The notes under the pieces: model-generated
Told to the model about the DNA's origin: nothing
What the model saw: the letters and a program-made list of their open reading frames with translations, nothing else
The model's database searches: none
Made by a program: the position numbers and the translations under genes
Virus record (IMG/VR): IMGVR_UViG_3300015171_000006
Span: 1 to 55,093 of that record
Length of the DNA: 55,093 nt
From: an uncultured virus (IMG/VR IMGVR_UViG_3300015171_000006)
Taxonomy: Duplodnaviria > Heunggongvirae > Uroviricota > Caudoviricetes
Reading direction: 5' to 3' (one strand)
In this document: in pieces, positions 1 to 55,093 of the stretch
Layout: each line of letters opens with the position of its first letter
How positions within the stretch are numbered: position 1 is the stretch's first letter

Positions 1-4
1 AACG

Positions 5-79
5 TTCGCTGTTATGATTTTTTAAGTAGCAAATAATTATAAAGGCAGATGGAACTACTTAAAAAATCATAACAGCGAA
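5..79. repeat. Perfect 25-bp inverted repeat (spacer hairpin), copy A
   Basis: TTCGCTGTTATGATTTTTTAAGTAG (5-29) / CTACTTAAAAAATCATAACAGCGAA (55-79), 25-nt loop; identical to 52327-52401. Confidence 0.95.
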
Positions 80-93
80 GCGGAAATTCAAGC

Positions 94-122
94 CTCACTT
101 ATAAGAAACTCTTATATTAAAT
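94..122 (+). other. dif-like XerC/XerD site 1 (7-bp central region)
   Basis: CTCACTTATAA-GAAACTC-TTATATTAAAT; right arm is 10/11 identical to the XerD box TTATGTTAAAT. Confidence 0.75.
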
Positions 123-211
123 TGGCGCTAACACAGCCATGAGTAAAAGCGTCAGGAAAATTGTAAAGACAGCCAACGCCACTTGTTTTTATCGGAATTT
201 GATATTTTATT

Positions 212-643
212 ATGGAGAAAAGCATTAGTGATAATCTTGCGAAGCATGTTGAATTATCAAACGACAAATTCCAAAAGTATTATAATTGGTTGCGTGGTTT
301 AATTGCTATAGCTGGAGGCTTGGTAGCTATTTTAATATCTTTAAAAAGCGGAATTTCAAAAAACCCAAATCAACACAAATTATTTATTTCTACTATAGGA
401 TTACTATCCGCAGGTATCCTTTTTGGATCAATCGTATTATATCAGGAAGTTTATATTGCAGGCAAATATCTTCAAGTGATGCACGATCACATAAAAGAAC
501 AATTTGAGGGCTACAAAGGAGACTTACTTGGCTGGATAGAAATCCCAAAAATTTATAAAATATGTTCTTACCTATGTATAATTTCTTTTGTTTTGTCGTT
601 AATATCTCTTGTAACTTATGCGGTATTTGCCGATTTGCCATAG
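212..643 (+). CDS. Hypothetical multi-pass membrane protein (module A cargo)
   Basis: 143-aa ORF with three hydrophobic segments, opposite to structural genes, inside a pair of dif-like sites. Confidence 0.8.
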   Translation: MEKSISDNLAKHVELSNDKFQKYYNWLRGLIAIAGGLVAILISLKSGISKNPNQHKLFISTIGLLSAGILFGSIVLYQEVYIAGKYLQVMHDHIKEQFEGYKGDLLGWIEIPKIYKICSYLCIISFVLSLISLVTYAVFADLP

Positions 644-730
644 TTTCTTTTAACAGTATAAAAAAATATTAGAAAAATTTAGAGGCATGATTGTTAATTT
701 ACAAACACAGCTTCATAAATCGCTTCAATA

Positions 731-985
731 ATGTACGTGTCTCTCCCTCTCCAATATTGGCAGCCTGCAGTCCTCCAAATCTTCAACAAGGGAAAGAAGT
801 TAAATTATGTAGTCCAGATCATGTTATACTGGTTTATTGGGACGTTAGTACTTTCTTTAGGGCTTAATGCGAAAGATATTATAAAATATTTTTTAGGGAG
901 AAATAAAGAGAAAGCCAAAACAACGACATCACAGCAATCCCTAAAAGGTCTTCAGAATCAATCCACGAAAGATACTTCCAAATAG
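731..985 (+). CDS. Small hypothetical membrane protein (true start may be ATG at 820)
   Basis: Hydrophobic stretch MLYWFIGTLVLSLGL followed by a basic tail. Confidence 0.45.
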   Translation: MYVSLPLQYWQPAVLQIFNKGKKLNYVVQIMLYWFIGTLVLSLGLNAKDIIKYFLGRNKEKAKTTTSQQSLKGLQNQSTKDTSK

Positions 986-1171
986 ATTTCAAAACATAAT
1001 TTTTCGCAGCTTTTACATTTTCAAATCAGTATCATGTTATGTTGTTAGAAAATGACAAAGGCAGTCATTTTCGCTTCGCCTTTTAGAACAACAATTTTCC
1101 CGCCCCTTTTGCCCTCACTTTCCCGGCGCTTTGGGGTTGCCTTCTTGAAAACTTACAACCCCTGCTAACCA

Positions 1172-1200
1172 AAATAACATAAGAGCTAATTATAGGCTTT
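1172..1200 (-). other. dif-like XerC/XerD site 2 (inverted relative to site 1)
   Basis: Minus strand AAAGCCTATAA-TTAGCTC-TTATGTTATTT, same 11-7-11 layout. Confidence 0.7.
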
Positions 1201-2610: not shown

Positions 2611-3155
2611 ACGCCTCTTACTTGTTGTAAATATACTTTTGCATTATCAGCAATTTTGCCATCACCGCGGTTCTCATACATATACGCTATCTGGCAAAGT
2701 ATTGCTATTTTATAATTTGCCGGCAAGGCGGTAAACCCTGCATTATATTCAGCAGTAAAATCACCATCGTAAGGCTCATTAAGATTGGATATTACCAAAG
2801 CATTCCCGTCCATATCTTTATAAATCACGTCTCCAATTACCGGACCGAAAGGAAGAGTAATATCTCCCAGGCCGTTATGAATTTTTGCCTTTACATTTCG
2901 GTTTATAAAAGAAAGGTTTGCGTAGTTTTCACATACACCCCTTGCTGCTGAAATAAGCATGGTTATTAAAGTATCATCATCTGTCACATCTACACGCAGC
3001 CAGTTTTTTGCCTCATCAAGTGTTATCCATTCACTGTCATTCTCCTCGCTGAATTTCACATTAGTAACCGCATTAAAAGCAATGCCGGTGCCGCCAATAA
3101 CACTTAGCCGGTTACGCTTTGCATCTTCACTGTCGCCTTCAAAAATGTAACTCAT
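2607..3155 (-). CDS. Head-tail connector (HK97 gp6/SPP1 gp15-like)
   Basis: ITLDEAKNWLRVD...DDTLITMLISAAR...AIL..IAYMYENRG. Confidence 0.9.
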   Translation of the reverse strand: MSYIFEGDSEDAKRNRLSVIGGTGIAFNAVTNVKFSEENDSEWITLDEAKNWLRVDVTDDDTLITMLISAARGVCENYANLSFINRNVKAKIHNGLGDITLPFGPVIGDVIYKDMDGNALVISNLNEPYDGDFTAEYNAGFTALPANYKIAILCQIAYMYENRGDGKIADNAKVYLQQVRGV

Positions 3156-3156
3156 A

Positions 3157-3792
3157 TTATTTCTTTTTTACAATTATCAATTCTTTATAAAAATGGATAA
3201 ATTCAAATTTATTATTAACCACATCTTCAGTTTTTAAATGCTCATAATTTAGCTGATGCGTTAATTGCTGAAAGTAATGCATGGAAGTATTTGCAGATAA
3301 GTCTTTGCTTCCTTCATATTCAGTATCCTCAAAATAGCTTGTATGCACATCTTCAATAAAATAAATATCCCCGCTCTGCAGCAGCGGAAATATCATCTCA
3401 AATGTTTTTATGGTTAGGCTGTTGTTGTGGCTGGCATCATCAATAATAATTCTTTTATCAGATCCTTTTTCCCTTTCCAATATTGAAGCAAATAAATTTT
3501 CATCTGCTTGAGAACCTTGCCAAAATTCAGTCCGGTCATTAACTATATTTATTTTATCATAAAGATCAATGCCAATTATTTTACCCTGCACAAAATAATC
3601 ATACCACATACGCAGGCTTTCGCCGCCCCTGTCTGCATAATGATAACCGCCAACTCCAATCTCAACTAAAGAAATTTTATTATTTCTTAATGGTTCAAGG
3701 TATAGCTCATAAGTTTTGCAATAATCATGGTAAGTGCTGCTTTTATCAGTACCGTATTTTAAAGCAAGGTTATCTAAGCTTTCCATGGCCAT
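3157..3792 (-). CDS. Class I SAM-dependent methyltransferase (sugar O-methyltransferase-like)
   Basis: KYGTDK...H.Y...YE, LVEIGVG, IIGIDL, IIIDDASH, GDIYFIEDV. Confidence 0.85.
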   Translation of the reverse strand: MAMESLDNLALKYGTDKSSTYHDYCKTYELYLEPLRNNKISLVEIGVGGYHYADRGGESLRMWYDYFVQGKIIGIDLYDKINIVNDRTEFWQGSQADENLFASILEREKGSDKRIIIDDASHNNSLTIKTFEMIFPLLQSGDIYFIEDVHTSYFEDTEYEGSKDLSANTSMHYFQQLTHQLNYEHLKTEDVVNNKFEFIHFYKELIIVKKK

Positions 3793-5270
3793 GTATTTAC
3801 ATAAGTTTCTAATTGCGGTTTACTCATTTCTTTCACCTTATAAAACTCCTGGTCATTCTTTTTAAAATGCGGGTGATTGGTGCTGCTGTTTGCCCCAATA
3901 AAGTGATCCATGTGATACATTTTCCCTTTTACCCTTTTCACTTTTAAGTCAAGCATATTAAACCTGTCATACCGCTCGCTATCTTCGGGGCCCCAGCTTA
4001 CAAAGTTTTCATTTTCCATACCGGCATTAATAAAAGATTGTTTACTCATTACAACTGCATGTCCTACGCTGCTATGCGTTTTAGGCAGGCATTTACTAAT
4101 ATTAATGTCATACACATCTAAGCTTTCAATCACATCGTTAAACATATAGCGTGGCACTCTTGCCACCCTTCCGTCAAAAGGATAAACAATATCAGCGCCT
4201 TCATTAATTAATTTAACCGATTCATAAAGCTGTGCCGGCGGGCAAATATTATCCCCGTCCCAATTAACAACTACCTCAGTTTTAGCTTTCTTAACTAAAT
4301 CGTTTATCATTTTTGTACGATGAAAATGCGGCATATGAAAGTTTACATAAGAAACATATTCACTCATAAAAGCAAACTCATTTCCGCCCTGCTCGCCAAT
4401 AATAATATTAGTATTAAAATTCTTAAGCATAAAGCCAACCGTAAGCATTATATTTAGCTTCCTGTCTAAGTGATCGTACATTACCGGAATAATAAATGTT
4501 GTATCTTTTAAATCAATCTTATCATTGTTCATCTTCCATTCACCGGGCCAGTAATCTTTCTCATCATACCGCAAAGCATCAAAGTTTTTTGCAGGCCTTA
4601 TCACATTTTTACTGTCTGATAAATAAGCGCCCCACCAGCTAAAAGTCGAGTTGCTTATAATAAAATTATCGCACATACTCATTAAACATAGCTGCTCAAT
4701 ATCATTTAAACCATCCGCAAAAAATACATTTTCCAAAGCTTCAAAATGCAGCCTGCAGTAACTAAAATCATCTGTAAAAATGATGATATTACAATCACTG
4801 AAATATTTATAATAAGCCGATAAATAATAACTTACAGGAACCTGGTAATAATTTTTGTTGTTTACAAAATCACCGCGGCGGATGCTTATTGCAACAGTAT
4901 GTTTTTGAAAGGCGCCGGAAAAATTAGATTTTAATCTTTCTTTTATTTCTGCCTTAAACTCAAATTGTTTTCTCACCTCACATTCAGCATTAGCCCAATA
5001 TTTTTCTGATTGAAAAAACCCCTCCAGATCATAATTTATAGCACTGTCAAGCTTAAATAATTCTTCATCAAAATGGAAGAACTTCTCTTTTAAAACTGTT
5101 GAGTTTGCGGCGCCATCATGCGGCAAATTATTTTCAAAATAATCTTCGTAATTCCATAAAGGGAAACTGCATGTTGTATCATTAGCTTTAGCAATACCCA
5201 TGCAGGAAGCCACTTGAAACAATTGATTTCCAAGCCTGCCTAAAGTTCCCAAAGAGGAAAAGGTTATCAT
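3774..5270 (-). CDS. Bifunctional glycosyltransferase: GT11 (alpha-1,2-fucosyltransferase-like) fused to a GT-A (GT2/GT7C-like) domain
   Basis: GT11 motifs GRLGNQLFQ, ISIRRGDF, SNSTFSWWGAYL; C-terminal TFIIPV, WDGD (DxD), WGPEDSER. Confidence 0.88.
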   Translation of the reverse strand: MITFSSLGTLGRLGNQLFQVASCMGIAKANDTTCSFPLWNYEDYFENNLPHDGAANSTVLKEKFFHFDEELFKLDSAINYDLEGFFQSEKYWANAECEVRKQFEFKAEIKERLKSNFSGAFQKHTVAISIRRGDFVNNKNYYQVPVSYYLSAYYKYFSDCNIIIFTDDFSYCRLHFEALENVFFADGLNDIEQLCLMSMCDNFIISNSTFSWWGAYLSDSKNVIRPAKNFDALRYDEKDYWPGEWKMNNDKIDLKDTTFIIPVMYDHLDRKLNIMLTVGFMLKNFNTNIIIGEQGGNEFAFMSEYVSYVNFHMPHFHRTKMINDLVKKAKTEVVVNWDGDNICPPAQLYESVKLINEGADIVYPFDGRVARVPRYMFNDVIESLDVYDINISKCLPKTHSSVGHAVVMSKQSFINAGMENENFVSWGPEDSERYDRFNMLDLKVKRVKGKMYHMDHFIGANSSTNHPHFKKNDQEFYKVKEMSKPQLETYVNTWPWKA

Positions 5271-5479
5271 GCTGGTACTTTAATTTTATTCTTTTTATTA
5301 ATCACATTCGGTTTATTACCCTGTAAATGTCTTAAAAGAATTGCTTCAGTTTTCGCCGGGTCAGCATCAGCACTTTCAGCTACATTGCATCTTATAAGAT
5401 AGCTTCCCATACTTTCATCAAAATCAACTTCTTCTCCCGGCTTCCAGTTAATGTGTTTTTTTAAAAACCTTATCAGCAT
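5267..5479 (-). CDS. Small protein downstream of major capsid gene
   Basis: 70-aa ORF overlapping the next start; IRFLK...KPGEEV pattern typical of post-capsid small proteins. Confidence 0.7.
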   Translation of the reverse strand: MLIRFLKKHINWKPGEEVDFDESMGSYLIRCNVAESADADPAKTEAILLRHLQGNKPNVINKKNKIKVPA

Positions 5480-8700: not shown

Positions 8701-8738
8701 TAATACCCGCATCTGTAATGATTGCGGGTTTTTTATTA
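8701..8738. terminator. Bidirectional terminator-like hairpin between convergent genes
   Basis: ACCCGCA...TGCGGGT then TTTTT, flanked by TAATA/TATTA. Confidence 0.6.
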
Positions 8739-9542
8739 CTGTGGTAAAAATAATTGTGTACAGCGGCAATTTATAACCTCTTTTGCCGGCACTGGTAACT
8801 CACCTTTGCCGCCCCTATCTCCAGGATGCAAAGGTGAGTTACCAGGATCTATAAAAAAATCATTCATGCCAACAATTTGCCCCGATACATTTCTGTGGTC
8901 GTTTCTTACACGGCTATCACTGGCGGCAAGCCATTCTTTTTTAAGATCAAGACCTGTATCTTTAGCAACAAACAAGGCCCCGGCATTGGCAGCCGTTACC
9001 GTTTCTGTACGTGCAATCAACCTTGCTCTTATCCTACTGAGCTCAGTATTTTCAAGCTGCTTAATAATATCGTCTATGCCTTCACCCTTGGCATAAGCAT
9101 CCGTAAAAACCTGCATAATCAAATCTTTGGTTGTTTGGGTAATGCCTTCACTTGTAGTTAAAATATCATAGCTAAAATACTGCTCAATTTGCTGGCGCAT
9201 TGCTTCACTAAAACCCATGGCCAGTCGGTGCTTGGTTTCAATACCAACAACGTAACTTTTTACACTTCGCTTCATCTTTACAAGATCTGCTCTTACCTTG
9301 GCGCCATAAACTGTGCCTGCATCAATATAGAGAGGCTTAATTGCTGCTGATATTGTTGTGGCTGATATTCTGTTAATTGCTTCGTGCTCTGTTGAGCCTT
9401 TGTGCAAATACTGAAGCACAACATCGTACTGTGATCTTATTGCTTTGAAGATAGAAGGCGCAAAGTATTTCTCCCGGCTTTTTTGAAAACGGTGAAAGCG
9501 TTGTAAGTGGCTATGTTTTTCTTCCTGTTGCACGATATTCAT
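8736..9542 (-). CDS. Minor head protein (SPP1 gp7/Mu gpF family)
   Basis: RARLIARTET, KEWLAASDSRVR.DH, HPGD, EVINCRC. Confidence 0.92.
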   Translation of the reverse strand: MNIVQQEEKHSHLQRFHRFQKSREKYFAPSIFKAIRSQYDVVLQYLHKGSTEHEAINRISATTISAAIKPLYIDAGTVYGAKVRADLVKMKRSVKSYVVGIETKHRLAMGFSEAMRQQIEQYFSYDILTTSEGITQTTKDLIMQVFTDAYAKGEGIDDIIKQLENTELSRIRARLIARTETVTAANAGALFVAKDTGLDLKKEWLAASDSRVRNDHRNVSGQIVGMNDFFIDPGNSPLHPGDRGGKGELPVPAKEVINCRCTQLFLPQ

Positions 9543-10061: not shown

Positions 10062-11546
10062 CTAATTACCATTCGGAGTTGCAACAGGCAAGGGCGGCAT
10101 ATTTTCAAAATCATCCAATGGCGTATATCCTGTAGGTATCCATGGCAAATCAAATTTAGGATCATCATATCGCTCCCAATCCATCATCTCACGTTTTTCA
10201 TTTGGCGTTAAATGCCACATTATAGCCAGCGATGCAGCCTTCCTTTCCAAATCCTGATGCAGCTCCGATATACCGCTTATATCAGCATCTATGTATCTTG
10301 ATTTTCCGTCTCCCTTCACTCTTACCGGCTCACCGTCTTGCCCTGTAATTAAAACGCCATCTTTAAAGTCAGGCAATAAATGTTTAACCAATGCATCTCT
10401 TACCCTGAAAATATTCGGCAAAATAGTATTGGTATAAAGCCGTTTGGTATGTGTAAGCACGTTACTTTCCGTGCTTGCGCTGTCGCTGTTAAATAAAATA
10501 TCACTTACGCCCCACACATTGCACAGCTTTTTAAAATCCACATTGCCAAGCTCCAGCACTCCCAAATCTTTAAGGTGGCTACCAAGCTGTATAGCACCCA
10601 TTTCACCATTTGCAAAAAAAGGAGCGCCGGCATTATCAGGGTTACTTATAAAGCGGTGAAAATTTTGTTTTCGCTTTCCAATTATATCAACTCTTTCTTC
10701 ATCTACACCCAGCCCTTTTTCGTAAACAATAGTTTCCACACCGCCGTTCTGCAATCTTGCCACAGAAGTATTCATATTACTATCCAGCCTGGTAAGCCTT
10801 TTTTGAAGAACTTTTAAAGGAGAAAGCCCGCGAAGCTCGCTGCCCATTATATTCATTTCCGGGTTAAAATATTTAATATGAATAACATCTTCAGCAGGTA
10901 TATTTTCCATAATTATCTTGCCTTCATATCTATAATCATAGGCAACAATGGTTCTGGGTAAATCATTGCTTATTTTTAAAATAACACCTTGCGGATATAG
11001 TAAATGCAACTGTATAGGCAAGCCAATGTTTACGCCATCTTCCGGCCTTTCTTTTAAAATAAAAGCTTCGCCATGCAAAAAAAGATTTGAATAAACACCT
11101 TCAAAAAATTCATACTTACTCATATCCTGGTGCGGATTTTCTATAAGAGCAGCCACCGGATCATCTTCCGGCAAATCTGTTAATGCTTTTGTTTGAAGTG
11201 ATTTGTATTTTATAACATTGTTATAACCCTTAACCTCTTTTTTCAGGTTCGTAAAAGCTTTTTTATCTGGAGTAGATAGATAACCGTAAAGAGGAACCAG
11301 CGCCGCAGTAGTTGCCAGCAGGCGAATGATGGAATAAATATCATCTGTGTTTAAATACCTGTCATTGGCTGTTTTAATACTCCATGCGGGGTAAATAGCT
11401 ATGTTACTATTTAAATTGGCGGCAATGTTAGCCATTGCAATATTTTCAAACCCGGTAGTGGCTGCAGCAAATCTTTTTAATTCCGTTACTTCCTGCGATA
11501 GCTGCTTAATAGCCTTATCCTTTTTGCCAAAATCAAATAAACCCAT
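10062..11546 (-). CDS. Portal protein, HK97 family
   Basis: LIENPHQDMSKYEF, LHGEAFI, VIHIKYFNP, GLSPL, LTPNEKRE. Confidence 0.93.
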   Translation of the reverse strand: MGLFDFGKKDKAIKQLSQEVTELKRFAAATTGFENIAMANIAANLNSNIAIYPAWSIKTANDRYLNTDDIYSIIRLLATTAALVPLYGYLSTPDKKAFTNLKKEVKGYNNVIKYKSLQTKALTDLPEDDPVAALIENPHQDMSKYEFFEGVYSNLFLHGEAFILKERPEDGVNIGLPIQLHLLYPQGVILKISNDLPRTIVAYDYRYEGKIIMENIPAEDVIHIKYFNPEMNIMGSELRGLSPLKVLQKRLTRLDSNMNTSVARLQNGGVETIVYEKGLGVDEERVDIIGKRKQNFHRFISNPDNAGAPFFANGEMGAIQLGSHLKDLGVLELGNVDFKKLCNVWGVSDILFNSDSASTESNVLTHTKRLYTNTILPNIFRVRDALVKHLLPDFKDGVLITGQDGEPVRVKGDGKSRYIDADISGISELHQDLERKAASLAIMWHLTPNEKREMMDWERYDDPKFDLPWIPTGYTPLDDFENMPPLPVATPNGN

Positions 11547-11641: not shown

Positions 11642-11935
11642 TGATTTTTTAAGTAGTTCCATCTGCCTTTATAATTATTTGCTACTTAAAAAATCATAAC
11701 AGCGAACGTTCTTTATTTATCAGAGTATGAGAGCCTTGATTATAAGATAATATTATGTTACTCAGGTTAGCCGTTTAGCCGCAATTCAATTTTATATTTT
11801 TGCGTAAGCTTTTAAAATTGAGATTGCACGCTGGCTGCTGTAGCGTTGAAGGCTGGCTTAAAAAGTAAAATAAAAAATGTCTTTGAGAGCGAAGCAAGAT
11901 TGCTGGTTTTTGAGCAATCTTTCAATATCATACGT
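11642..11935 (-). repeat. Inverted partial copy of the module-end/spacer element
   Basis: 11642-11773 and 11851-11935 are reverse-complement matches to about 52260-52391 and 52095-52179; the middle differs. Confidence 0.92.
11735..11763 (+). other. dif-like XerC/XerD site 3
   Basis: CTTGATTATAA-GATAATA-TTATGTTACTC. Confidence 0.72.
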
Positions 11936-12038
11936 GGGTAAAAAACCCTTACCTTTATAAAAATAAAAAACCCATTACGCCAATAATGGGGGATTGCACA
12001 TACTATCAATATGAACATATCAAAGTTAATACTTTTTT

Positions 12039-12254
12039 ATGTTCAAATATTTTATTGTATTTACTTCTCTTATGTTTATTTTATATTCTTGCGAACACAA
12101 GAAAATACATCATCAGTCCATTTTAAAGCCTGACCCCTATATTACCAAGATGTACTTTCAGATGGATAGTTTAATAAAATCTGATGCAAAAAGCGGCACG
12201 TATGTAATAGAAGGAGACACTATTACTTTTTTAAAGTATCAATTGGGTGACTAA
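12039..12254 (+). CDS. Small putative lipoprotein (module C cargo)
   Basis: Signal peptide with lipobox-like LYS-C. Confidence 0.65.
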   Translation: MFKYFIVFTSLMFILYSCEHKKIHHQSILKPDPYITKMYFQMDSLIKSDAKSGTYVIEGDTITFLKYQLGD

Positions 12255-12972
12255 GCGGCAAAAGACTTATCCCTAATTCTGGCAACTCCGTTCCACTTAC
12301 GACTAAGTTCATACTAAAGTGAAATGTGTCTTTGTATTCTTTACCGTTTAAATCAAGACAATTTATTGTAAAAAGAGTTTTATTTGTAATTAAATCCGGT
12401 ACTACATAATAAGGGAAACTAAAACTTGCTGTACAAGCAATTGGTTCTAATGGATTCAATCTATATATTTTCTCCATATCAATAAGATTTGAATAACTGG
12501 CTTTAACGTTTATTGCTGTTGTATCCATATTCGGGGGAAGCAAAGAGGCTTTGCCACTCACTATTCCATATTTGGGCGTTTCTACAGTTAAGCCGTATGG
12601 GCCATTAATAAATAATGGCTTCTCTCCATTATTTTCTAAGATTCCTGAAATGATTACAACTTGGCCACTTTGCTTTTTTATTGGGTCTCTATATTGCCCT
12701 ACATACATTGCTCTTGGATGGTATTTAAAAGAAGGTCTGTCTGTAAAATATGACACGACTTTGAATATTCCTGGAATACCACCTATAGCGCCGATTAATA
12801 AGATTATGAGTGAAGAATAAATATATGAAGGCTTTTGGGAAATTTCCTTAATAGATAACTTTCTATCCCTTATGTTTTTAGGTTTTACAACATTTTTTTC
12901 ACTTATAGGAAGCTTTGGTTGCGGGAGAGGAAATTTTGGCTTTTGCTTTTTTGTAAATTTTGGCTTGCCCAT
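12223..12972 (-). CDS. Membrane-anchored hypothetical protein (module C cargo)
   Basis: Basic N-terminus, one TM segment, beta-rich remainder. Confidence 0.75.
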   Translation of the reverse strand: MGKPKFTKKQKPKFPLPQPKLPISEKNVVKPKNIRDRKLSIKEISQKPSYIYSSLIILLIGAIGGIPGIFKVVSYFTDRPSFKYHPRAMYVGQYRDPIKKQSGQVVIISGILENNGEKPLFINGPYGLTVETPKYGIVSGKASLLPPNMDTTAINVKASYSNLIDMEKIYRLNPLEPIACTASFSFPYYVVPDLITNKTLFTINCLDLNGKEYKDTFHFSMNLVVSGTELPELGISLLPLSHPIDTLKK

Positions 12973-13009
12973 TCGCTAAAATAAACATTCTTCGAAACAA
13001 ACCTCAATC

Positions 13010-13117
13010 AAAAACCAGTGGCGCTGGCTTTTTTATTTTACTTTTTCAGAGGCTGTGCAGTGCCTGTTTAACATAATGGTTTCTTATAAGTGAGGCTTGA
13101 ATTTCCGCTTCGCTGTT
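13010..13117 (-). repeat. Inverted copy of the module-start element
   Basis: Reverse complement matches about 52393-52500 with few substitutions. Confidence 0.92.
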
Positions 13118-13330
13118 GGGCATTTGTGCGTCGGCTGAATTAAGTGAGGGGCGGTCCAACGTGAGGAATGGCTCGCCGTACAAATTAAACCCAAGATCAC
13201 ACAGTTTATTTAAGTGGAGGTAATACCATTTACCACTTCCATATAATTTGTACGAAAGCTCACACATTATCTTATGAAACCACCATTTTACTGGCTTTTT
13301 AAACTGCTTATTAACCTTGCTACAAGCCAT
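13046..13330 (-). CDS. Hypothetical protein; C-terminus reads through the dif-like element
   Basis: Starts just after the terL stop; the last ~24 codons are repeat sequence, so the gene is possibly truncated. Confidence 0.45.
   Translation of the reverse strand: MACSKVNKQFKKPVKWWFHKIMCELSYKLYGSGKWYYLHLNKLCDLGFNLYGEPFLTLDRPSLNSADAQMPNSEAEIQASLIRNHYVKQALHSL
13066..13094 (-). other. dif-like XerC/XerD site 4
   Basis: Minus strand CTCACTTATAA-GAAACCA-TTATGTTAAAC. Confidence 0.8.
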
Positions 13331-13345
13331 ATATATATATTGGGT

Positions 13346-14884
13346 TTAATATTCTGCATCAGCATAAACTTTTTTAGGCACCAGCGTAAATATTTCACGC
13401 ATCATAAACATATCCATTAAATCAGGACTGTCACCATTTAACTTGGTTTTCATTTCATCTTTCTTTATAACCCGCAGCTTACCGTCACTATCAGGCTTTG
13501 CCCGCTTTATGGCTTTGCGCTCATATAAAAATCGTTGCCTCACAGTCATTTTAGTATCATACATCATATTTGCCACACGCTCATTAATTTTCATTTCACC
13601 ACGGTTAACTCTGTTACCGCTCCTGTAATAACATTGAGCCTTAAGGTGCTCATAATTTTCTGGCAATAACTTTCGTGTCTTGGGATCATATTTTGGGTTA
13701 GAATAATCTGGCAAAGCCGGGCTTCCATTATTAAACTCTTTGGCGCCAACAATATACCCGTCAATAAACTGGCCCACACCATCATTATCAAAAGCAATAT
13801 TGCTGTTTTGTGTTTTATGCTTTTTTGCCATATTCTCAATGCCGGCAATCACTTCATTACCCTTGCTCTTATCCATAATCAGCATATCATCCAGTTCAAA
13901 GCCGCTCCAATGCCCAACTATAAATTTATTACTTCCTTTCATAGCAATATCAGCCGTAATATAATTGCCATCATTTTTTACATCATACTTATTTTCAAAC
14001 ATGCCTATAAATTTATAATAATCATAAATATCAATGTCAGATAATATTACCTTCCAATTTCCTTCAAATAACTGAGCCTTGGTTTCTGCATCCTGCGCCA
14101 TCAGGTTTCCCAGGTACGAAGGGTTTACTTTTAAAAGCTCTTTATTATCATAAATACTACCTGATATAAAGGTTATAGACTTTACAAATTCCCTTGCATC
14201 TATGCCAGATTTTTGTACGGCATCTTCAATTAAATACCATCCTTTTTCAATCACCTCCTCATAACTATCCCCCCAAATATAATTCTCGCCATCTACAAGC
14301 ATATATCTTATCACGCCATCCCTTTCCGGTATAGGGAAGCCGGTATCTGCATCAATCCACCAATTAATTAAATCATAAACCCAGCTTTCAGGGTCAGGGT
14401 TGCATGTTGCCCTGCAGTAAGGCCGAACGCCTGATACGGATCTGTTCCTGGTAAGCAGGTAAAAAAACATTTTTTTTGAAAAATGGGTCAGCTCATCAAA
14501 ACCTATAAATGGTATCTGAGCTCCCTGCCAGTCAAATATATTTTTCTCATACTCTAAGTGGGAAAATTTAAGCTTGCATCCCGATTTAAAATACCATTCT
14601 AAGGAGCTTTCCTTAGGAACGGCGCCAATGCCAGGGTAAATCGTCATGGAAGTATCCCACAATCCACCCTCATTTCTTATCTGTGGAGATGTACGCCTGA
14701 ATATAACACCGCCAAAAGCAGGGTTATGAACGTCACGCAGCGGATCAAGTAAAAGAGTGAATGTTTTACCTACGCCTGCAGCAGCGCCGCCAATTATTAT
14801 ATCAGCAGCATTACTAAGCGCCTTGGTTTGATAACCCGGCTGCGGCTGTATCGTTAGCGTAGGTTTCTTTATTAGCTCTGCCAT
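13346..14884 (-). CDS. terL: Terminase large subunit
   Basis: Q motif PQPGYQ, Walker A GAAAGVGKT, Walker B FIGFDE, ATCNP, nuclease ITADIA and SPDLMD. Confidence 0.95.
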   Translation of the reverse strand: MAELIKKPTLTIQPQPGYQTKALSNAADIIIGGAAAGVGKTFTLLLDPLRDVHNPAFGGVIFRRTSPQIRNEGGLWDTSMTIYPGIGAVPKESSLEWYFKSGCKLKFSHLEYEKNIFDWQGAQIPFIGFDELTHFSKKMFFYLLTRNRSVSGVRPYCRATCNPDPESWVYDLINWWIDADTGFPIPERDGVIRYMLVDGENYIWGDSYEEVIEKGWYLIEDAVQKSGIDAREFVKSITFISGSIYDNKELLKVNPSYLGNLMAQDAETKAQLFEGNWKVILSDIDIYDYYKFIGMFENKYDVKNDGNYITADIAMKGSNKFIVGHWSGFELDDMLIMDKSKGNEVIAGIENMAKKHKTQNSNIAFDNDGVGQFIDGYIVGAKEFNNGSPALPDYSNPKYDPKTRKLLPENYEHLKAQCYYRSGNRVNRGEMKINERVANMMYDTKMTVRQRFLYERKAIKRAKPDSDGKLRVIKKDEMKTKLNGDSPDLMDMFMMREIFTLVPKKVYADAEY

Positions 14885-20730: not shown

Positions 20731-21285
20731 TATTACCAGTTTATCTTTGCAATTAAACCCATAAACCAGCATTGCAGCATCCCGCCCATGTTCATTCGTG
20801 CTTTCTTTCCATCCTGTTATTTTTTTAAAGAGCGCTGCATCCACTTTTGTTTTATTATTCCGTGGCGCCACCAGCTCAAATGGGATTTTATGATCACTTA
20901 AAAAATCTTCCCAAATTTTGCAGTCCCTCTTTATGCTTCCTGCACCTTGCAGCTGCTCCCTTCCTGATTCTCCAAACCAGTTTCTTTTCCGTGCATCTTC
21001 AAGCCGAACAAGTTTTATCATACCAATCCAATTGTGTACTTTATCCAATGCTTCATGTATCGTCATACTCAGCACCTGTATTAATATTTTCCCATTCCAA
21101 ATTGCAATCCCGGTGTTAACACCCGGATCAATCCCTATTACATAATCTCCCTTATGAATAATTTTTATTGATTTTTGTGAATTATTTTTTTTCTTTTTTG
21201 TGCTGATTCCATAATTAGGTTCGTCATCGCAAACAAGCCCTTTTGCAATTAATTCTTTAATATGTGATTGATCCCAACCTTTCAT
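20725..21285 (-). CDS. RuvC-like (RNase H fold) Holliday junction resolvase, putative
   Basis: VIGIDPGVNTGIA, E, NEHGRDAAML; typical position after replication genes. Confidence 0.75.
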   Translation of the reverse strand: MKGWDQSHIKELIAKGLVCDDEPNYGISTKKKKNNSQKSIKIIHKGDYVIGIDPGVNTGIAIWNGKILIQVLSMTIHEALDKVHNWIGMIKLVRLEDARKRNWFGESGREQLQGAGSIKRDCKIWEDFLSDHKIPFELVAPRNNKTKVDAALFKKITGWKESTNEHGRDAAMLVYGFNCKDKLVIK

Positions 21286-23319: not shown

Positions 23320-24486
23320 TTATAAAAACATTCCTAATTCTTTTTTTAATCTCTTCTCGGCCATCTTTATATAGGCCGGGTTTAATTCTATACCAATAAA
23401 ATTTCTGTTTAGTTTTCTCGCTACAAGTGCAGTAGTTCCTGCGCCCATAAATGGATCAAGTACAATCCCATTTTCAGCGCATCCGGCTTTAATACAATCA
23501 ACAATTAAATCCTGCGGAAAGGTTGCAAAGTGTGCATTAAAGTAAGGTTTGGTAGTTACTGTCCACACACTTTTTTTATTTGCCATTCCTGATCCAATCA
23601 AATTATCATACGCATCAAAATTGCCTGAATGACCAGTTAATTTTTTATCACCTGCGCCGCGGTGAGCATAGGCTTTAATACCACTTTCAGAACCCTGGTT
23701 TCCGCCCTTTATATCAATTCCATTTCGTGACATTCGCCCTGGTCCAACGGCTTTCATTGCACCATTAGTTTTGCCAGGTACTATATCACTTCCTTTTTGA
23801 TCCTCTATTTGCTGCATCATTCTCTTAACGGTACTATCTTTTACAGGCGTTCTTATAGCATCAATATCGTAGTAATACCTAGGAGACTTGCTTAATAGAA
23901 AAATATATTCATGAGATTTTGTACAGCGGTCTGTAACGCTCTCTGGCATTGGATTGGGCTTGTTCCAAATAATATCCTGCCGCAAGTACCAGCCATCTTT
24001 ACGGAGGGCAAGTGCCAGAGTCCATGGAATGCCAATTAAATCTTTCGCTTTGATATCACCTGATGCCGGTATGTTACCACCTCCCCATCTGCTAACGCCG
24101 TTTACATTTCTTCCACGTTTACTTTTTTGCTGTTTACTAAATTCATAATTTCCTATGCCCTCAATTGAAGATGCAGACATTGATTTATGCACCCAGTTAG
24201 TATTAGAGCCTTTTTGCTGCCCGTTCATTCTTCCTGCATAAGAATCTCCCATATTCAACCACAGTGTGCCATCATTTCTAAGCACTCTTTTAGCCTCTCT
24301 GAATATTAATACCATTTTTCTGACATATGCTTGCGGTAATGCCTCCAGACCCAATTGTCCGCTAACTCCATAATTTCTTAACCCATAGTATGGCGGAGAG
24401 GTAACAATGCAATGAATACTTTTATCAGCAAAAGTTTTTAAAACTTTTAGTGCATCACCAGGATATATTTTATTCACAGCCATCAT
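23320..24486 (-). CDS. DNA amino-methyltransferase (N4-C/N6-A, beta class)
   Basis: VTSPPY, IIWNKPNPMPES, HFATFP, VLDPFMGAGTT, IGIELN. Confidence 0.93.
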   Translation of the reverse strand: MMAVNKIYPGDALKVLKTFADKSIHCIVTSPPYYGLRNYGVSGQLGLEALPQAYVRKMVLIFREAKRVLRNDGTLWLNMGDSYAGRMNGQQKGSNTNWVHKSMSASSIEGIGNYEFSKQQKSKRGRNVNGVSRWGGGNIPASGDIKAKDLIGIPWTLALALRKDGWYLRQDIIWNKPNPMPESVTDRCTKSHEYIFLLSKSPRYYYDIDAIRTPVKDSTVKRMMQQIEDQKGSDIVPGKTNGAMKAVGPGRMSRNGIDIKGGNQGSESGIKAYAHRGAGDKKLTGHSGNFDAYDNLIGSGMANKKSVWTVTTKPYFNAHFATFPQDLIVDCIKAGCAENGIVLDPFMGAGTTALVARKLNRNFIGIELNPAYIKMAEKRLKKELGMFL

Positions 24487-51272: not shown

Positions 51273-51707
51273 TTACCGGTGAAAGATGCTATGCTGAAAA
51301 GTTAGCACCCGATCAACATACTCCCTGGTATTATTAATGTTGTAATTCTGCGTAAAGTCGCCAGAAAGTTTTGTTGTTACACATTGAAGATTATCAGTTA
51401 ATTCAAGAGCAGTTTGTCTGTCAGGATAAATGGCCATTAATACAAGCCCGGCAATAGCATCAGCCGCCGCACCGTCATTATATTTCTCTTTAAATGTGTG
51501 AATCGTTACCCGCATAGATGTTGATGTATCTGCTTTGTATTGAGAAGAAGTATCATTATTAGTAATGCCGCCAAATACAATATAATTTTCATCCTCAATA
51601 TTATCAGGCGCTTTTTGATAAAAAACAGGGATAGGCACATCATTATATTTCAGCACCGATAAGGCAGAATTGTAAGCCACTCTTAAAGGATAATTTACAT
51701 CTCTCAT
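51273..51707 (-). CDS. Tail terminator (DUF3168-like)
   Basis: LR.AY..AL....VPVF..P......YIV pattern; upstream of the major tail gene. Confidence 0.78.
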   Translation of the reverse strand: MRDVNYPLRVAYNSALSVLKYNDVPIPVFYQKAPDNIEDENYIVFGGITNNDTSSQYKADTSTSMRVTIHTFKEKYNDGAAADAIAGLVLMAIYPDRQTALELTDNLQCVTTKLSGDFTQNYNINNTREYVDRVLTFQHSIFHR

Positions 51708-52269
51708 GTAAAGTAAAAGTAAAATCTTAATGTTTTTTGTTCAATAAGTTTATACTTAAAAACTATTTGGACCTTCCACTTAATTCAGCCCGGCCAACAG
51801 GCTATTCAAAAAAAACAAATATGCGACTAATTATATAACTTGCAAATTATAAGTACTTGCCCAAGCGCTTAATTTGAAGGTAAAAAAAGTCTTTTAGTAG
51901 ATAACAAAAATACTACTAAATGACAAAGTTTTGCCTAATTGGGCTAATATTTTTTTCTTGCAATATTTACCGAAAAATCCCATCTAAAATGTCAACTGTT
52001 CATCCCAAGCATGAATACAGAATTGGTGATACAATTATTATAAAAAATAAGAAATACTGTGTAATAGATGTGAGAATGTAAAGGGATTTTATCTACGTAT
52101 GATATTGAAAGATTGCTCAAAAACCAGCAATCTTGCTTCGCTCTCAAAGACATTTTTTATTTTACTTTTTAAGCCAGCCGGCCAAGCTATGCAGCTCCTA
52201 TGAAAGCTGATTTTTTGCCGCATACGCTAAATTAAAAAATCACTTTCCAGCCAGTCTCTCGGCTAACCT

Positions 52270-52298
52270 GAGTAACATAATATTATCTTATAATCAAG
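52270..52298 (-). other. dif-like XerC/XerD site 5
   Basis: Minus strand CTTGATTATAA-GATAATA-TTATGTTACTC, identical to site 3. Confidence 0.72.
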
Positions 52299-52415
52299 GC
52301 TCTCATACTCTGATAAATAAAGAACGTTCGCTGTTATGATTTTTTAAGTAGCAAATAATTATAAAGGCAGATGGAACTACTTAAAAAATCATAACAGCGA
52401 AGCGGAAATTCAAGC

Positions 52416-52444
52416 CTCACTTATAAGAAACCATTATGTTAAAC
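52416..52444 (+). other. dif-like XerC/XerD site 6
   Basis: CTCACTTATAA-GAAACCA-TTATGTTAAAC, identical to site 4. Confidence 0.8.
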
Positions 52445-52517
52445 AGGCACTACACAGCCCCCAAAAAAGTAAAATAAAAAAGCCCGCGCCACTGGTTTTT
52501 ATTATGTAGAATGTATA

Positions 52518-53183
52518 TTGTGGAGAATGGGAATTTATAAACTATACTTGTTTCTTTTACTGCTTTCACCTATAGCCTCTTTTCCTCAAATAAAAAGAAT
52601 AAATAATATTAACGTGAGCCTTAAAAACCTTATATCAGAAACATCCAAAATTATGGATATTTTGCACATAAGTAAAAGGGTCAATTTAAAAAAAGATTCT
52701 CCATCCATAAACGTTCTTATAGATAGTACCGTCCTTCCATTTAATGCGTTTTTTGGCGGATTACATAAAAATGAAAGAGGTGTTATAACTCCATCAGGCA
52801 ACCATGCTTTAAGGTACTACAGATATCCTGCTATAAGGATGAATCCGCTTTTGCATTTAATAGTTTCAAAGAAGAAAGATACTACTGCTTTTGTCAGGCT
52901 TAAGGCAATATCAATTTTTGTTCACGAATTGGTTCATTATTTACAAGCTACTTGGTGGGTACACAACATTACTGTAACCTCGTATGATCAAATGGAATCT
53001 TATATATCTCAACCTGATGAATTTGAGGCTTATGGAGCAGAAGCATATTTCCTTTTAAAATATTACAATGAAAAATTATTAAGTAGTATAATGTACTCCA
53101 AAAACACACAAGAAACAAAAATGAAATTATTAATCAAATCATACTACTCAACCGTATATCCGTGGAGAGCTAAAATTTTTTAA
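52518..53183 (+). CDS. Secreted HExxH zincin-like protein (module B cargo)
   Basis: Hydrophobic N-terminus; FVHELVHYLQ and downstream Y..QPDEFEAY. Confidence 0.72.
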   Translation: MWRMGIYKLYLFLLLLSPIASFPQIKRINNINVSLKNLISETSKIMDILHISKRVNLKKDSPSINVLIDSTVLPFNAFFGGLHKNERGVITPSGNHALRYYRYPAIRMNPLLHLIVSKKKDTTAFVRLKAISIFVHELVHYLQATWWVHNITVTSYDQMESYISQPDEFEAYGAEAYFLLKYYNEKLLSSIMYSKNTQETKMKLLIKSYYSTVYPWRAKIF

Positions 53184-53535
53184 TCTTTACTTATTATACT
53201 ATCAGGATAAATACAAATATTATACATAACGGTATCCATTCTGTTTATATTAATGGTATCGCATTTTACTAAATGTAAAGGCCTATGACACTTCTTTGAA
53301 GTATTGCAGCTTGTTAAAGTAAAAAACACAAACCACCGGAGGGAAAAAAATTTTCATTTGTTCAATGAATTAATATGAGTAATTTTGTTACTCATTTAAA
53401 CCATTAAACCTTATGATATTAATATAATTGCAGGCTGCTAACGCAGTCTGTTTGTGTTTTATAAAGGTAAGAAAATAATTTTTTCCCATATCCTGTTTTT
53501 TTGTACTTTGTACAGGATTTCAAAACTAAACAATC

Positions 53536-53883
53536 ATGGCTAAGATTCTAATAGTTGATGATGAGCAAGACCTTTTATATGTTGTAAAAATCCTTTTAAC
53601 AAAAGAAGGTTTTGAAGTTATAACACATTCCACTTATTCAAATGTTGAAGAAATTGTACTAAGGCATTCTCCTGATTTAATTCTTTTGGATGGAGTGATT
53701 CACGGAGGTTCAGGTCGGGAAATTTGTAAAGAACTCAAAAAAAATTACCCTATACCAGTTGTATTGTTTTCAGCACATAGCCCAATTTCAAAAACCTATA
53801 AAGATTACGATGCAGACGGTTTTATTCAAAAGCCTTTTGATATACCGGACTTTATAAATACTATTAAGTCATACCTCAATTAA
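53536..53883 (+). CDS. Single-domain response regulator (CheY-like, module B cargo)
   Basis: KILIVDDE, PDLILLD, GREICKELK, PVVLFSA, ADGFIQKPF. Confidence 0.93.
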   Translation: MAKILIVDDEQDLLYVVKILLTKEGFEVITHSTYSNVEEIVLRHSPDLILLDGVIHGGSGREICKELKKNYPIPVVLFSAHSPISKTYKDYDADGFIQKPFDIPDFINTIKSYLN

Positions 53884-54151
53884 TAGTTTTAGGTTATCGG
53901 TTTAAGTTGTCTACCTTACTGCTGGTTTTCACAAGTATAGCGAATTTTTAAGGGAGGTGAATCTTTATTCTGCCTCCCAATTTTTTTTCACTCCCCCTTG
54001 GTATAATGCCTTGATTACTCACCATATTTTAATTTAATAGAATTATTTATTACCTTTCTTTTCTCATAGACCAGTTAGTTTGGTATATAACCGAGGGCGA
54101 ATTTTTATTCTGCCCTCCTGTTTTTATGTTGTAAGATTGGTATATTAGCGA

Positions 54152-54811
54152 ATGGAAAGAAGGAAGTTTATAATTACCGTGAAGCAAAGGATTATTCTTG
54201 GACTTGTAGGCCTTTTCTTCACTTTTGCTATTGCATATATTAAAGGATGCTTTAATAAAACGGAAGCTAAAAAAATGCCAGTAGTCAATTCTCATATTAG
54301 TAATTATCAATCGAGCATCGGTCAACAATATAATGCGGGTAGAGATATAGTATTTTCTTCGCCAACCTCAAAGGTTGATACAAACACCACTAATCCATTG
54401 TTAACCAAAGTGCATACAGGGCAAAAAAACCAAAGAAAATTTAACAGCACTAAAAAAGATACTCTAATTGTTAACAATGGTTTTATAAATAATGGAGGAG
54501 TTGGCAATACGTATAACCAAACAATGAACCCTCCTTCGGAACAAAGGCACTTAAGCCCACTGGATAAAATTTACCTTGATACTGCCTTTTCTCCTAACTT
54601 AAAATTTTTCTTATTAGATGTTTACAATTTTGACAAGGAAAGTTTGAACTTATCAAATGAAATAAGTAATTACTTGGAATCAAAAAACTATACACCAATG
54701 ATGCGGCAACCAGAAAATATTCTTGGCGGAGTTCCGAAGGATAGCTTAGGCAAAATTAATATTATAAAATATGATGGGAGTTTTAAGATAATTATTTATC
54801 CATTGAAATAA
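54152..54811 (+). CDS. Membrane-anchored hypothetical protein (module B cargo)
   Basis: Basic N-terminus, one TM segment, low-complexity linker, globular C-terminus. Confidence 0.72.
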   Translation: MERRKFIITVKQRIILGLVGLFFTFAIAYIKGCFNKTEAKKMPVVNSHISNYQSSIGQQYNAGRDIVFSSPTSKVDTNTTNPLLTKVHTGQKNQRKFNSTKKDTLIVNNGFINNGGVGNTYNQTMNPPSEQRHLSPLDKIYLDTAFSPNLKFFLLDVYNFDKESLNLSNEISNYLESKNYTPMMRQPENILGGVPKDSLGKINIIKYDGSFKIIIYPLK

Positions 54812-54932
54812 TTTTTACCCAAGGATTAATCCTATTACAATGCCAATTCTAATTGCTTTCACTATAAGTCTATAAGGGATACCAAATAACAATTTTAATT
54901 AACGCAGTCAGTTTTAGAACGGTAAATTTACC

Positions 54933-55093
54933 ACGTATGATATTGAAAGATTGCTCAAAAACCAGCAATCTTGCTTCGCTCTAAAAGACATTTTTTATTT
55001 TACTTTTTAAGCCAATCGGCCAAGCTATGCAGCTCCTATGAAAGCTGATTTTTTGCCGCATACGCTAAATTAAAAAATCACTTTCCAGCCAGT
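54933..55093 (+). repeat. Left part of module-junction element (copy A), cut by the contig end
   Basis: Matches 52095-52255. Confidence 0.93.

Follow-up and report, generated by a model that had tools for sequence, protein, structure and literature searches.

What are the inverted Xer-like sites that surround small accessory genes in an uncultured tailed phage from soil, and how may such genes have come to lie there? The question is raised by IMG/VR record IMGVR_UViG_3300015171_000006 (Caudoviricetes), which was analysed over its whole length of 55,093 bp (referred to as the window), is classed as linear and has a CheckV estimate of 60%. A preliminary description of this DNA had pointed out six sites, each with a left arm ending in TATAA, a 7-bp centre and a TTATRTTA right arm, and had likened them to the pdif sites of Acinetobacter plasmids. 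With a probability of roughly 60%, we read them as genuine Xer/dif-type cores of a family of enzyme-less cassettes that is based at the dif site of Chitinophagaceae and ferried by the phage. We class the system, which is common to Chitinophagaceae chromosomes and tailed phages, as a new variant of dif modules or of integrative mobile elements exploiting Xer (IMEX), one that contains a hairpin.

The sites exceed the background by far. The pattern TATAA-N7-TTATRTTA is found six times in the window, at the positions and on the strands first reported, compared to a mean of 0.05 matches in 100 dinucleotide-preserving shuffles, none of which reached six (maximum 2). Two classes can be distinguished (Table 1). 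Class a (s1, s4 and s6) has the form TTATGTTAAACAGGC, with TTATRTTAAA..GGC as right arm and flank, and class b (s2, s3 and s5) has the form TTATGTTA-N4-GGTTAGC. The XerD-like arms, i.e. TTATGTTAAAC in s4 and s6, TTATATTAAAT in s1, TTATGTTACTC in s3 and s5 and TTATGTTATTT in s2, are close to the pdif arm TTATGTTAAAT, and s2 has a counterpart with 86% identity over 58 nt in a Chitinophagaceae metagenome-assembled genome (MAG; L205). Spacers are identical within the pairs s3/s5 and s4/s6. As proposed before, the TTATRTTA arms of s1(+)/s2(-) and s3(+)/s4(-) point inward around positions 122-1172 (module A) and 11763-13066 (module C), respectively, and s5 and s6 direct their TATAA arms toward each other. 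In the case of module B, the postulated left site (s6) is present in the window; in place of a right site, there is only a 176-base end repeat. The order s1+, s2-, s3+, s4-, s5-, s6+ moreover departs from strict alternation. Since s4 and s5 both lie on the minus strand, alternation is incomplete, being broken only between these two, and the site lacking there may formerly have been part of a decayed junction (X, ~51770-51810). A degenerate hairpin behind s2, which was the first reading of this region, was ruled out by folding, as no hairpin was found in 1165-1310 (z = +0.66).

The sites are not free-standing. Classes a and b represent the two arms of an imperfect palindrome of ~190 nt with the structure b'-hairpin H-a, and this composite follows each cassette. 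Positions 11642-11773 are the reverse complement of 52260-52391 (132 nt, 100%) and 13010-13117 that of 52393-52500 (108 nt, 95%). Furthermore, 11841-11955 matches 52075-52189 (115 nt, 91%), positions 1-130 repeat 52323-52452 (95%), and the last 176 bases of the window repeat 52080-52255, the sequence preceding s5 (94%). The gap between s5 and s6 comprises 117 bases that hold a perfect hairpin H with 25-bp stems. This short spacer is non-coding, as stated in the preliminary description, which had missed both the hairpin and the 108-132-nt repeats around the sites.

When treated as a single strand, the b'-H-a composite (52240-52470) folds into one long hairpin (-41.1 kcal/mol, z -8.3), in which site b pairs with site a. 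Ten composites were aligned and folded, namely the phage composite, eight bacterial b/a composites and one dif/a composite, and all ten gave this single-hairpin fold with dG values of -36 to -58 kcal/mol and z from -7 to -17. The consensus fold contains 36 pairs, with compensatory changes in 14 that are located in the upper H stem and at two spacer positions beside the TATAA arm. These two spacer bases (GA, CT, GG, CG or TT) are common to the partners a/b or dif/a in 13 of 14 pairs as judged by eye, the exception being s1/s2 of module A. The outer stem of H varies between elements yet remains complementary, while the inner-stem motif GATTTTT...AAAAATC is kept in phage and bacterial copies and is counted five times in the window versus 0.16 expected. 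A second hairpin with the H stem motif (TGATTTTTT ... AAAAAATCA) resides at 52209-52241 and 55047-55079, within the conserved b-inner segment of two units. The following searches of collections were negative: the exact hairpin stem had no match in IMG/VR, the composite none by blastn against 50,697 phage records, and Rfam none at its gathering threshold in the window and seven bacterial loci. A loose site pattern returned 100 single matches in IMG/VR, none of them with an inverted partner of the genuine type, and these were taken as chance.

A plausible home for the cassettes was found in bacterial chromosomes. The b-type pattern was searched in one genome per species (185,579 species) and gave 19 matches, 18 of which fall in Chitinophagaceae or Chitinophagales (Ferruginibacter, Flavisolibacter ginsengisoli and MAGs), mostly one per genome. 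In many of these loci an inverted a-type site is located 120-150 bp from b, which amounts to the same b'-H-a composite. The chromosomal neighbours are ordinary genes that vary by species, such as gyrA, hisG and genes for a DbpA helicase, a GH3 enzyme or LpxR. Five whole genomes were searched, and each of them has a canonical site with a 6-bp centre, CCTATAA-TTAAYA (or TTTATA)-TTATGTTAAACAGGCGCAC, 0.5-1.8 kb from b. It is present in inverted orientation at a distance of 0.5-3.2 kb in 14 of the 18 loci, the remaining four of which end less than 600 bp inside b. The usual chromosomal layout is dif(+) - cargo - b(-) - H - a(+), with two tandem units in G007.

We read the 6-bp site as the chromosomal dif of the likely Chitinophagaceae hosts, because it is single-copy in about half of the genomes of the genus of G006 and lies near the cumulative GC-skew maximum in two of three contigs. 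Of 81 genomes of that genus, 42 contain its 20-mer ATAATTAAYATTATGTTAAA a single time (control pattern: 0), and the skew maximum is ~2 kb away in G005 (388-kb contig) and within ~8 kb in G006 (200-kb contig). Only this single-copy site has a 6-bp centre; all phage sites and all bacterial a and b sites have 7 bp, in line with the uniform and atypical centre noted at the outset. In right arm and flank (TTATGTTAAACAGGC), the phage a sites are identical to the chromosomal 6-bp site. Comparison with the host site, which the a/b/hairpin units adjoin, hence bears out the suspected kinship with Xer/dif.

Two chromosomal loci show further features of this region. In the MAG contig L207 (Chitinophagaceae), the dif region holds three b sites and one 6-bp site, and an IS21-type pair (IstA-like, 518 aa; IstB, 263 aa) occupies 3108-5473 between two b-type sites, which recalls the targeting of dif regions by insertion sequences in Acinetobacter, as outlined in the accessible part of PMC10132070. 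In L275 (G004), the cargo between b and dif (1330-2637) consists of three small open reading frames (ORFs; 140, 141 and 145 aa). One of them resembles, by eye, a helix-turn-helix antitoxin-type protein, which would be a parallel to Acinetobacter dif modules, where toxin-antitoxin genes are frequent cargo.

The cargo differs from unit to unit. In the tandem units of G007, the composite (92% over 271 nt) and ~110 nt beside a or dif (69%) are common, while the cargo is different. Likewise, L218 and L220, which stem from different species, are 84-88% alike in site and chromosomal flank, with intervening segments of 0.7 kb versus 1.5 kb and of different content. The 21 cargo ORFs from the window, the related phage G003 and five bacterial genomes have no mutual similarity at E<0.01, which supports the preliminary reading. 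No recombinase domain was found in the seven cargo ORFs of the window. The only one with a family is ORF 53536-53883 of module B, a stand-alone response-regulator receiver domain, beyond which PHROGs and PADLOC returned nothing for the window cargo. By eye, the 143-aa protein of module A has two predicted membrane helices, along with a weak SLATT match below cutoff, and the 221-aa protein of module B carries an HELVH motif. The composite is also present, with other cargo on both sides, in a second soil sample (X2), which is devoid of the phage backbone and in which parts of the window are without cover; run X3 gave no cover of the window. A 388-nt contig of X2 joins 13117 to 11642 with one base between, which represents a b'-H-a junction. 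The b side (11642-11906) is shared with 1 difference in 265 nt, other sequence follows beyond 11987 and 13005, and in both samples the a-inner segment is bordered by several differing loose ends.

That the modules were inserted is supported by related phages. Module C is located between the genes for the large terminase subunit (terL) and the portal protein, which are 1.8 kb apart in the window. Among 80 IMG/VR loci encoding terL relatives at 53-70% identity, 54 have a portal match, and in 52 of these 54 the terL and portal matches are at most 580 bp apart, with gaps down to 2 bp where the portal alignment begins at residue 1. The cargo of module C is found in none of the 80 loci; one has a weak match to orf94, a small ORF beside module C, elsewhere in the locus. 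Two relatives carry other cargo at other head-gene junctions. In G003, a distant relative (portal 24% and MuF 26% identity; 53% complete), b(+) and a(-) flank a 1.4-kb segment that comprises three small ORFs, and the module is situated between the portal gene and one resembling terL. In L279, a closer relative (MuF 54%, portal 31%), an a(+) ... b(-) arrangement with hairpin surrounds a 211-aa ORF between MuF and protease. Module position and cargo therefore differ between related phages, and the gain of accessory genes postulated in the preliminary description is supported. With respect to orf94 itself (13046-13330, -), the reading frame runs through the backbone/module junction and its stop at 13046 lies in the a-inner segment just beyond s4, so that cassette DNA supplies the codons for its 24 C-terminal residues.

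The main array (units D, B and A) lies between the tail terminator gene (51273-51707) and a neck/tail-completion gene (1506-2081), and the contig breaks within it. Both genes are on the minus strand, as are terL (13346-14884), portal (10062-11546), MuF (8736-9542) and the genes for prohead protease and capsid. Because the end and the start of the contig repeat parts of the composite, a further b'-H-a copy probably bridges the two. This is consistent with the read depth, which was taken from Logan contigs, in which rare inversions or circles are not visible: the 132-nt b+H repeat has a depth of 55.7 compared to ~18 for the even backbone, corresponding to roughly three copies. Independent Logan contigs of the source run reproduce the joins of the window. 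Both arrays are preceded by a motif TTGGACC..CC.CACTTAATTCAGCC, which forms the 3' end of orf94 (13125-13150, -) at module C and is present as a decayed copy of CACTTAATTCAGCC at the main array (~51775-51800, +), inside a 33-aa ORF remnant (51737-51838). The motif has CCTCACTTA in common with the left arm of the a sites; it may represent a target, or else indicate that one array arose as a copy of the other. A 498-aa protein (3774-5270, -) with glycosyltransferase family 11, family 2 and galactosyltransferase domains is encoded between the capsid and neck genes and represents an accessory gene in the structural operon without flanking a or b sites.

Table 1. Sites, modules and tyrosine recombinases in the window (positions in nt; ORF, open reading frame).
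Feature	Position	Strand	Description
Right part of b'-H-a composite	1..93	+	hairpin H stems 5-29 / 55-79 (25-nt arms, 100% complementary), loop 25 nt; flank_a 71-93
s1	94..122	+	a-type: CTCACTTATAA-GAAACTC-TTATATTAAAT
Module A cargo	123..1171	+	ORFs 212-643 (143 aa) and 731-985 (84 aa); no family above cutoff
s2	1172..1200	-	b-type; dif-like left arm GCCTATAA; spacer TTAGCTC
Inner hairpin H + flank_b	11642..11734	+	H at 11643-11695 in reverse orientation; backbone/module C junction 11641/11642
s3	11735..11763	+	b-type; spacer GATAATA
Module C	11764..13065	-	b-inner ~11764-11987; cargo ORF 12223-12972 (249 aa, no family); a-inner 13010-13065
s4	13066..13094	-	a-type; spacer GAAACCA
flank_a	13095..13117	-	module C/backbone junction 13117/13118
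Xer-like tyrosine recombinase, 290 aa	18214..19086	-	R-K-H-R-H-Y intact; 5 kb from module C
Bacteroidota-type integrase, 356 aa	32608..33678	+	Arm-DNA-bind_5 + SAM_5 + catalytic domain; not linked to sites
Module D, leftmost unit of main array	51708..52269	+	decayed junction X ~51770-51810; ORF 51920-52081 (53 aa); b-inner 52075-52269; H-like hairpin 52209-52241
s5	52270..52298	-	b-type; identical to s3
C-type segment	52299..52415	+	flank_b, hairpin H (52327-52351 / 52377-52401), flank_a; unit boundary at 52392 as deduced from module C
s6	52416..52444	+	a-type; spacer GAAACCA
Module B cargo	52445..55093	+	ORFs 52518-53183 (221 aa), 53536-53883, 54152-54811 (219 aa); b-inner 54918-55093 cut by contig end

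How could such units move? The cassettes appear to have their home in the dif region of the chromosomes of Ferruginibacter, Flavisolibacter and other Chitinophagaceae. A unit consists of two parts, namely the cargo between an a site and an inverted b site with XerD-like arms inward, and a short segment bearing the conserved hairpin H, such that b', H and a of neighbouring units together form the palindrome. As a single strand, the palindrome is predicted to fold such that a and b pair and yield one dif-like duplex, which has a small bubble in its centre and a variable stem-loop as its cap. This folded composite resembles the folded attP of CTX phage or the attC of integrons. The arrangement of single or tandem chromosomal units beside the 6-bp dif is the layout to be expected from integration of circles by host XerC/XerD. 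These are the most likely enzymes for the cassettes, because the right arm of the phage sites matches the host dif and because the units adjoin dif. This temperate tailed phage has acquired at least four units, three in the array between neck and tail-terminator genes and one between terL and portal, and in this reading it therefore ferries accessory cassettes of the host type. The folded single strand would serve as the substrate, and the cassettes would still be mobile.

Several observations weigh against this model. There is no Rep gene in the cassettes, which leaves the origin of the single strands unexplained, and no plausible 6-bp dif in the phage, the single loose match with a 6-bp spacer (at 21138) being at chance level. 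In all three solo phage modules (module C and those of G003 and L279), the junction with the backbone is located at the 3' base of the inner hairpin stem. For module C, the boundary corresponds to position 52392 in the composite, immediately 3' of the inner stem (..AAAAAATCA / T / AACAGCG..) and outside any site centre; for G003 and L279, it was placed by internal symmetry, as the flanks on the a and b sides cease to match exactly at the point where a hairpin would start. Hence, these junctions are not explained by Xer crossover at a or b. No clear common target motif was discernible by eye at the three. In addition, conserved segments extend inside the sites (a-inner, 60-110 nt; b-inner, 100-225 nt), and the cargo switches within them. 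On the chromosomal side, G004 exhibits no GC-skew switch at the 6-bp site within the 400 kb sampled. The exact b pattern was found in one of 201 sampled genomes of the family, namely the query genome itself, and a strict hairpin-plus-a pattern in 11 of 81 genomes of the genus, ~7 of which were judged convincing; the elements are therefore patchy. Finally, the covariation in the palindrome can also arise by gene conversion. The pattern opposite to that of the solo modules is seen at the right end of the main array, which is the site core s2 without a hairpin, and in the chromosomal arrays, which likewise end at site cores. Boundaries thus coincide with sites at s2 and in the chromosomal arrays, but not in the solo phage modules.

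The junctions at the hairpin base and the choice among candidate enzymes leave room for a more novel mechanism, either integron-like or dependent on nicking. A more far-reaching proposal, which is possible but must be regarded as tentative, is a Xer-based platform analogous to integrons. In such a platform, dif would be the docking site and counterpart of attI, and the ~190-nt palindrome the counterpart of attC or of the CTX attP. A second cut at the hairpin base would free single-stranded circles of unit length, which would land in structural operons of tailed phages and be ferried between hosts.

A rather unlikely alternative, in line with the preliminary description, is the classic shuffling of double-stranded dif modules, in which XerC/XerD act on duplex a and b sites with matching spacers and H is mere content of a C module without a role in folding. 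Orientation indeed alternates over most of the genome, with D-type cargo segments between C-type H segments, but s4 and s5 are in direct orientation. While the spacers of s3/s5 and of s4/s6 are identical, as matching would demand, they comprise 7 rather than 6 bp, as in every a and b site. The gain of a unit as a C+D pair corresponds to that described for dif modules in the accessible part of PMC13141974. Moreover, in favour of this view, the right end of the main array (s2) and the ends of the chromosomal arrays are site cores, whereas the three solo phage modules meet the backbone at the hairpin base. Lastly, duplex sites would have no need of a long palindrome with covarying stems, which is conserved in 10 of 10 composites.

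The junctions of the solo modules are instead central to an explanation that we consider improbable, namely mobility directed by the hairpin. An HUH-type nickase, a Rep protein or relaxase acting in trans, or another type of recombinase would recognise the conserved inner stem, cut at its 3' base and thereby release or insert nick-to-nick copies of unit length, and the dif-like sites would serve only for docking at dif. In CTX prophages, a unit-length copy is produced from tandem arrays. All three solo phage units run from just after one inner stem to the end of the next, yet two of these cases (G003 and L279) rest on internal symmetry, the three target sequences are without clear common motif, and s2 and the chromosomal arrays end at site cores. 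The inner-stem motif, with its five copies in the window, is kept in phage and bacteria while the outer stem covaries. An HUH or Rep gene, however, is absent from the cassettes and was not recognised among the scanned ORFs. Single-stranded phages that integrate at dif are nonetheless known in Bacteroidota (PMC3091885, PMC9719478).

It is quite improbable that the 290-aa Xer-like recombinase of the phage recombines a and b and drives capture in place of host XerC/XerD. The enzyme is encoded 5 kb from module C, and its catalytic residues (R131, K156, H222, R225, H248 and Y258) are intact and conserved in 33 homologues. The best curated model is archaeal XerA (181.7 vs a cutoff of 220), the integron-integrase model scores 116.7 bits (cutoff 265), and the closest solved relatives are XerA, IntI4 and XerD. 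Centres of 7 bp are common for tyrosine recombinases other than Xer, which would suit the phage sites. Yet the homologues do not travel with the sites. G001 (94% complete) and G002 encode homologues with 57-60% identity and have sites only at control level and no hairpin motif. In 21 metagenome loci (126.7 kb) with homologues at 27-72% identity, neither sites nor hairpins were found. Conversely, the Xer-like genes of unit-bearing bacterial genomes are only 25-36% identical to the enzyme, none being near units, and no homologue was found in the 53%-complete contig of the unit-bearing G003. A search with the single protein gave three IMG/VR loci only, and there are no notable short inverted repeats near its gene. 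In G002 (record of L188), a site resembling lox, in which inverted arms of 12 bp surround a centre of 7 bp (23985-24020), is located ~3 kb from the homologue with 57% identity and may be the target of this enzyme family; a counterpart of this 12-7-12 palindrome was not found in the window. The 356-aa integrase is presumably the phage's own integration enzyme. The suggestion in the preliminary description that one of the phage's recombinases could drive the system thus finds no link to the sites.

Hardly tenable, and largely refuted already, is the view that the repeats are regulatory palindromes or terminators around phage morons or a mis-assembly, for although strong intergenic hairpins are present and the contig breaks inside a repeat, the H stem is not followed by a T-run (by eye) and has no Rfam match, independent Logan contigs reproduce the joins at a depth of ~18 with three-fold depth on the repeat, and the same units lie beside dif in 14 of 18 bacterial loci with varying cargo.

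Within the accessible portions of the literature, dif modules are reported from Acinetobacter plasmids and chromosomes, and IMEX are represented by single-stranded phages, filamentous ones among them, and by a few islands. A literature search to which most subscription journals were closed returned nothing on such cassettes for Bacteroidota or for tailed phages. The units described here extend Xer-exploiting cassettes to another phylum and to double-stranded tailed phages. Their flanking sites and conserved hairpin form one foldable structure that links dif modules, the attP of CTX-type phages and integron attC sites, which are usually treated apart. If the cassettes are active, the morons of these phage lineages would be acquired by site-specific rather than illegitimate recombination, and dif would be a hot spot for the exchange of accessory genes between chromosome and phage.

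The closest known system are the dif modules of Acinetobacter Rep_3/OrfX plasmids, whose pdif sites have XerC and XerD arms of 11 bp each around a 6-bp spacer and which are gained as C+D pairs, according to the accessible text of PMC13141974. As in these, small accessory modules with unrelated cargo and without a recombinase of their own (PMC13141974, PMC12907356, PMC6449649) are bounded by inverted XerC/XerD-type sites with a right arm similar to TTATGTTAAAT, and XerD-inward cargo segments alternate with XerC-inward segments, in the phage over most of the genome. In contrast, the centre in phage and Chitinophagaceae has 7 instead of 6 bp, the XerC-inward segment is always the conserved hairpin, giving rise to a foldable palindrome of ~190 nt, conserved inner flanks are present inside the sites, and the solo phage copies meet the backbone at the hairpin and not at a site. 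The carriers are also different, being Chitinophagaceae chromosomes (beside dif) and tailed phages rather than Acinetobacter plasmids. Strict membership in the pdif family, to which the preliminary description had likened the sites, fails because of the 7-bp spacer and the other type of replicon.

The attP of CTX phage consists of two inverted dif-like sites that are folded in the single-stranded genome. In the composites, too, two inverted dif-like sites ~100-140 nt apart are predicted to pair in the single strand and to leave an unpaired centre. As with IMEX and CTX phage, the bacterial units are integrated beside the chromosomal dif in tandem arrays and without their own recombinase. Unlike these elements, they measure 0.6-2.7 kb, are devoid of Rep, capsid or morphogenesis genes and are thus cassettes rather than viruses. 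No single-stranded stage is evident for them, and some reside in the double-stranded genome of a tailed phage, where no dif is nearby. IMEX do have centres of more than 6 bp, as far as described in the accessible text of PMC3025954 and PMC3091885. Single-stranded DNA prophages at dif are known in Bacteroidota as well, namely the Alpavirinae microviruses (PMC3091885) and the PhiCjT23-like Flavobacterium phages (PMC9719478). They likewise exploit dif, some with an extra inverted dif-like site, but according to the portions available are viruses of 4.5-8.4 kb that encode Rep and capsid proteins and whose 28-nt sites have six nucleotides in the centre. A chromosomal dif proper is matched by the bacterial 6-bp site, whereas the phage sites are multiple and have 7-bp centres.

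With integron cassettes, finally, the units have in common that they are enzyme-less, carry unrelated cargo and are lined up in arrays where a single docking site is used. An imperfect palindrome closes each cassette and, as in attC, may act as a folded single strand. The boundary of the solo phage units falls inside the right stem arm, as it does in integron cassettes, such that the palindrome is completed only by the start of the following unit. Integron integrases themselves descend from Xer-like enzymes (PMC4792948, in the part available). In contrast to integrons, no IntI and attI are found next to the array, the 290-aa recombinase being encoded at least 5 kb from any module, and neither H nor the composites contain GTTRRRY/RYYYAAC boxes (by eye), so that the likeness is one of geometry only. 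Compared to attC, the palindrome is about twice as long and bears recognisable dif-type arms, and the docking site is dif itself.

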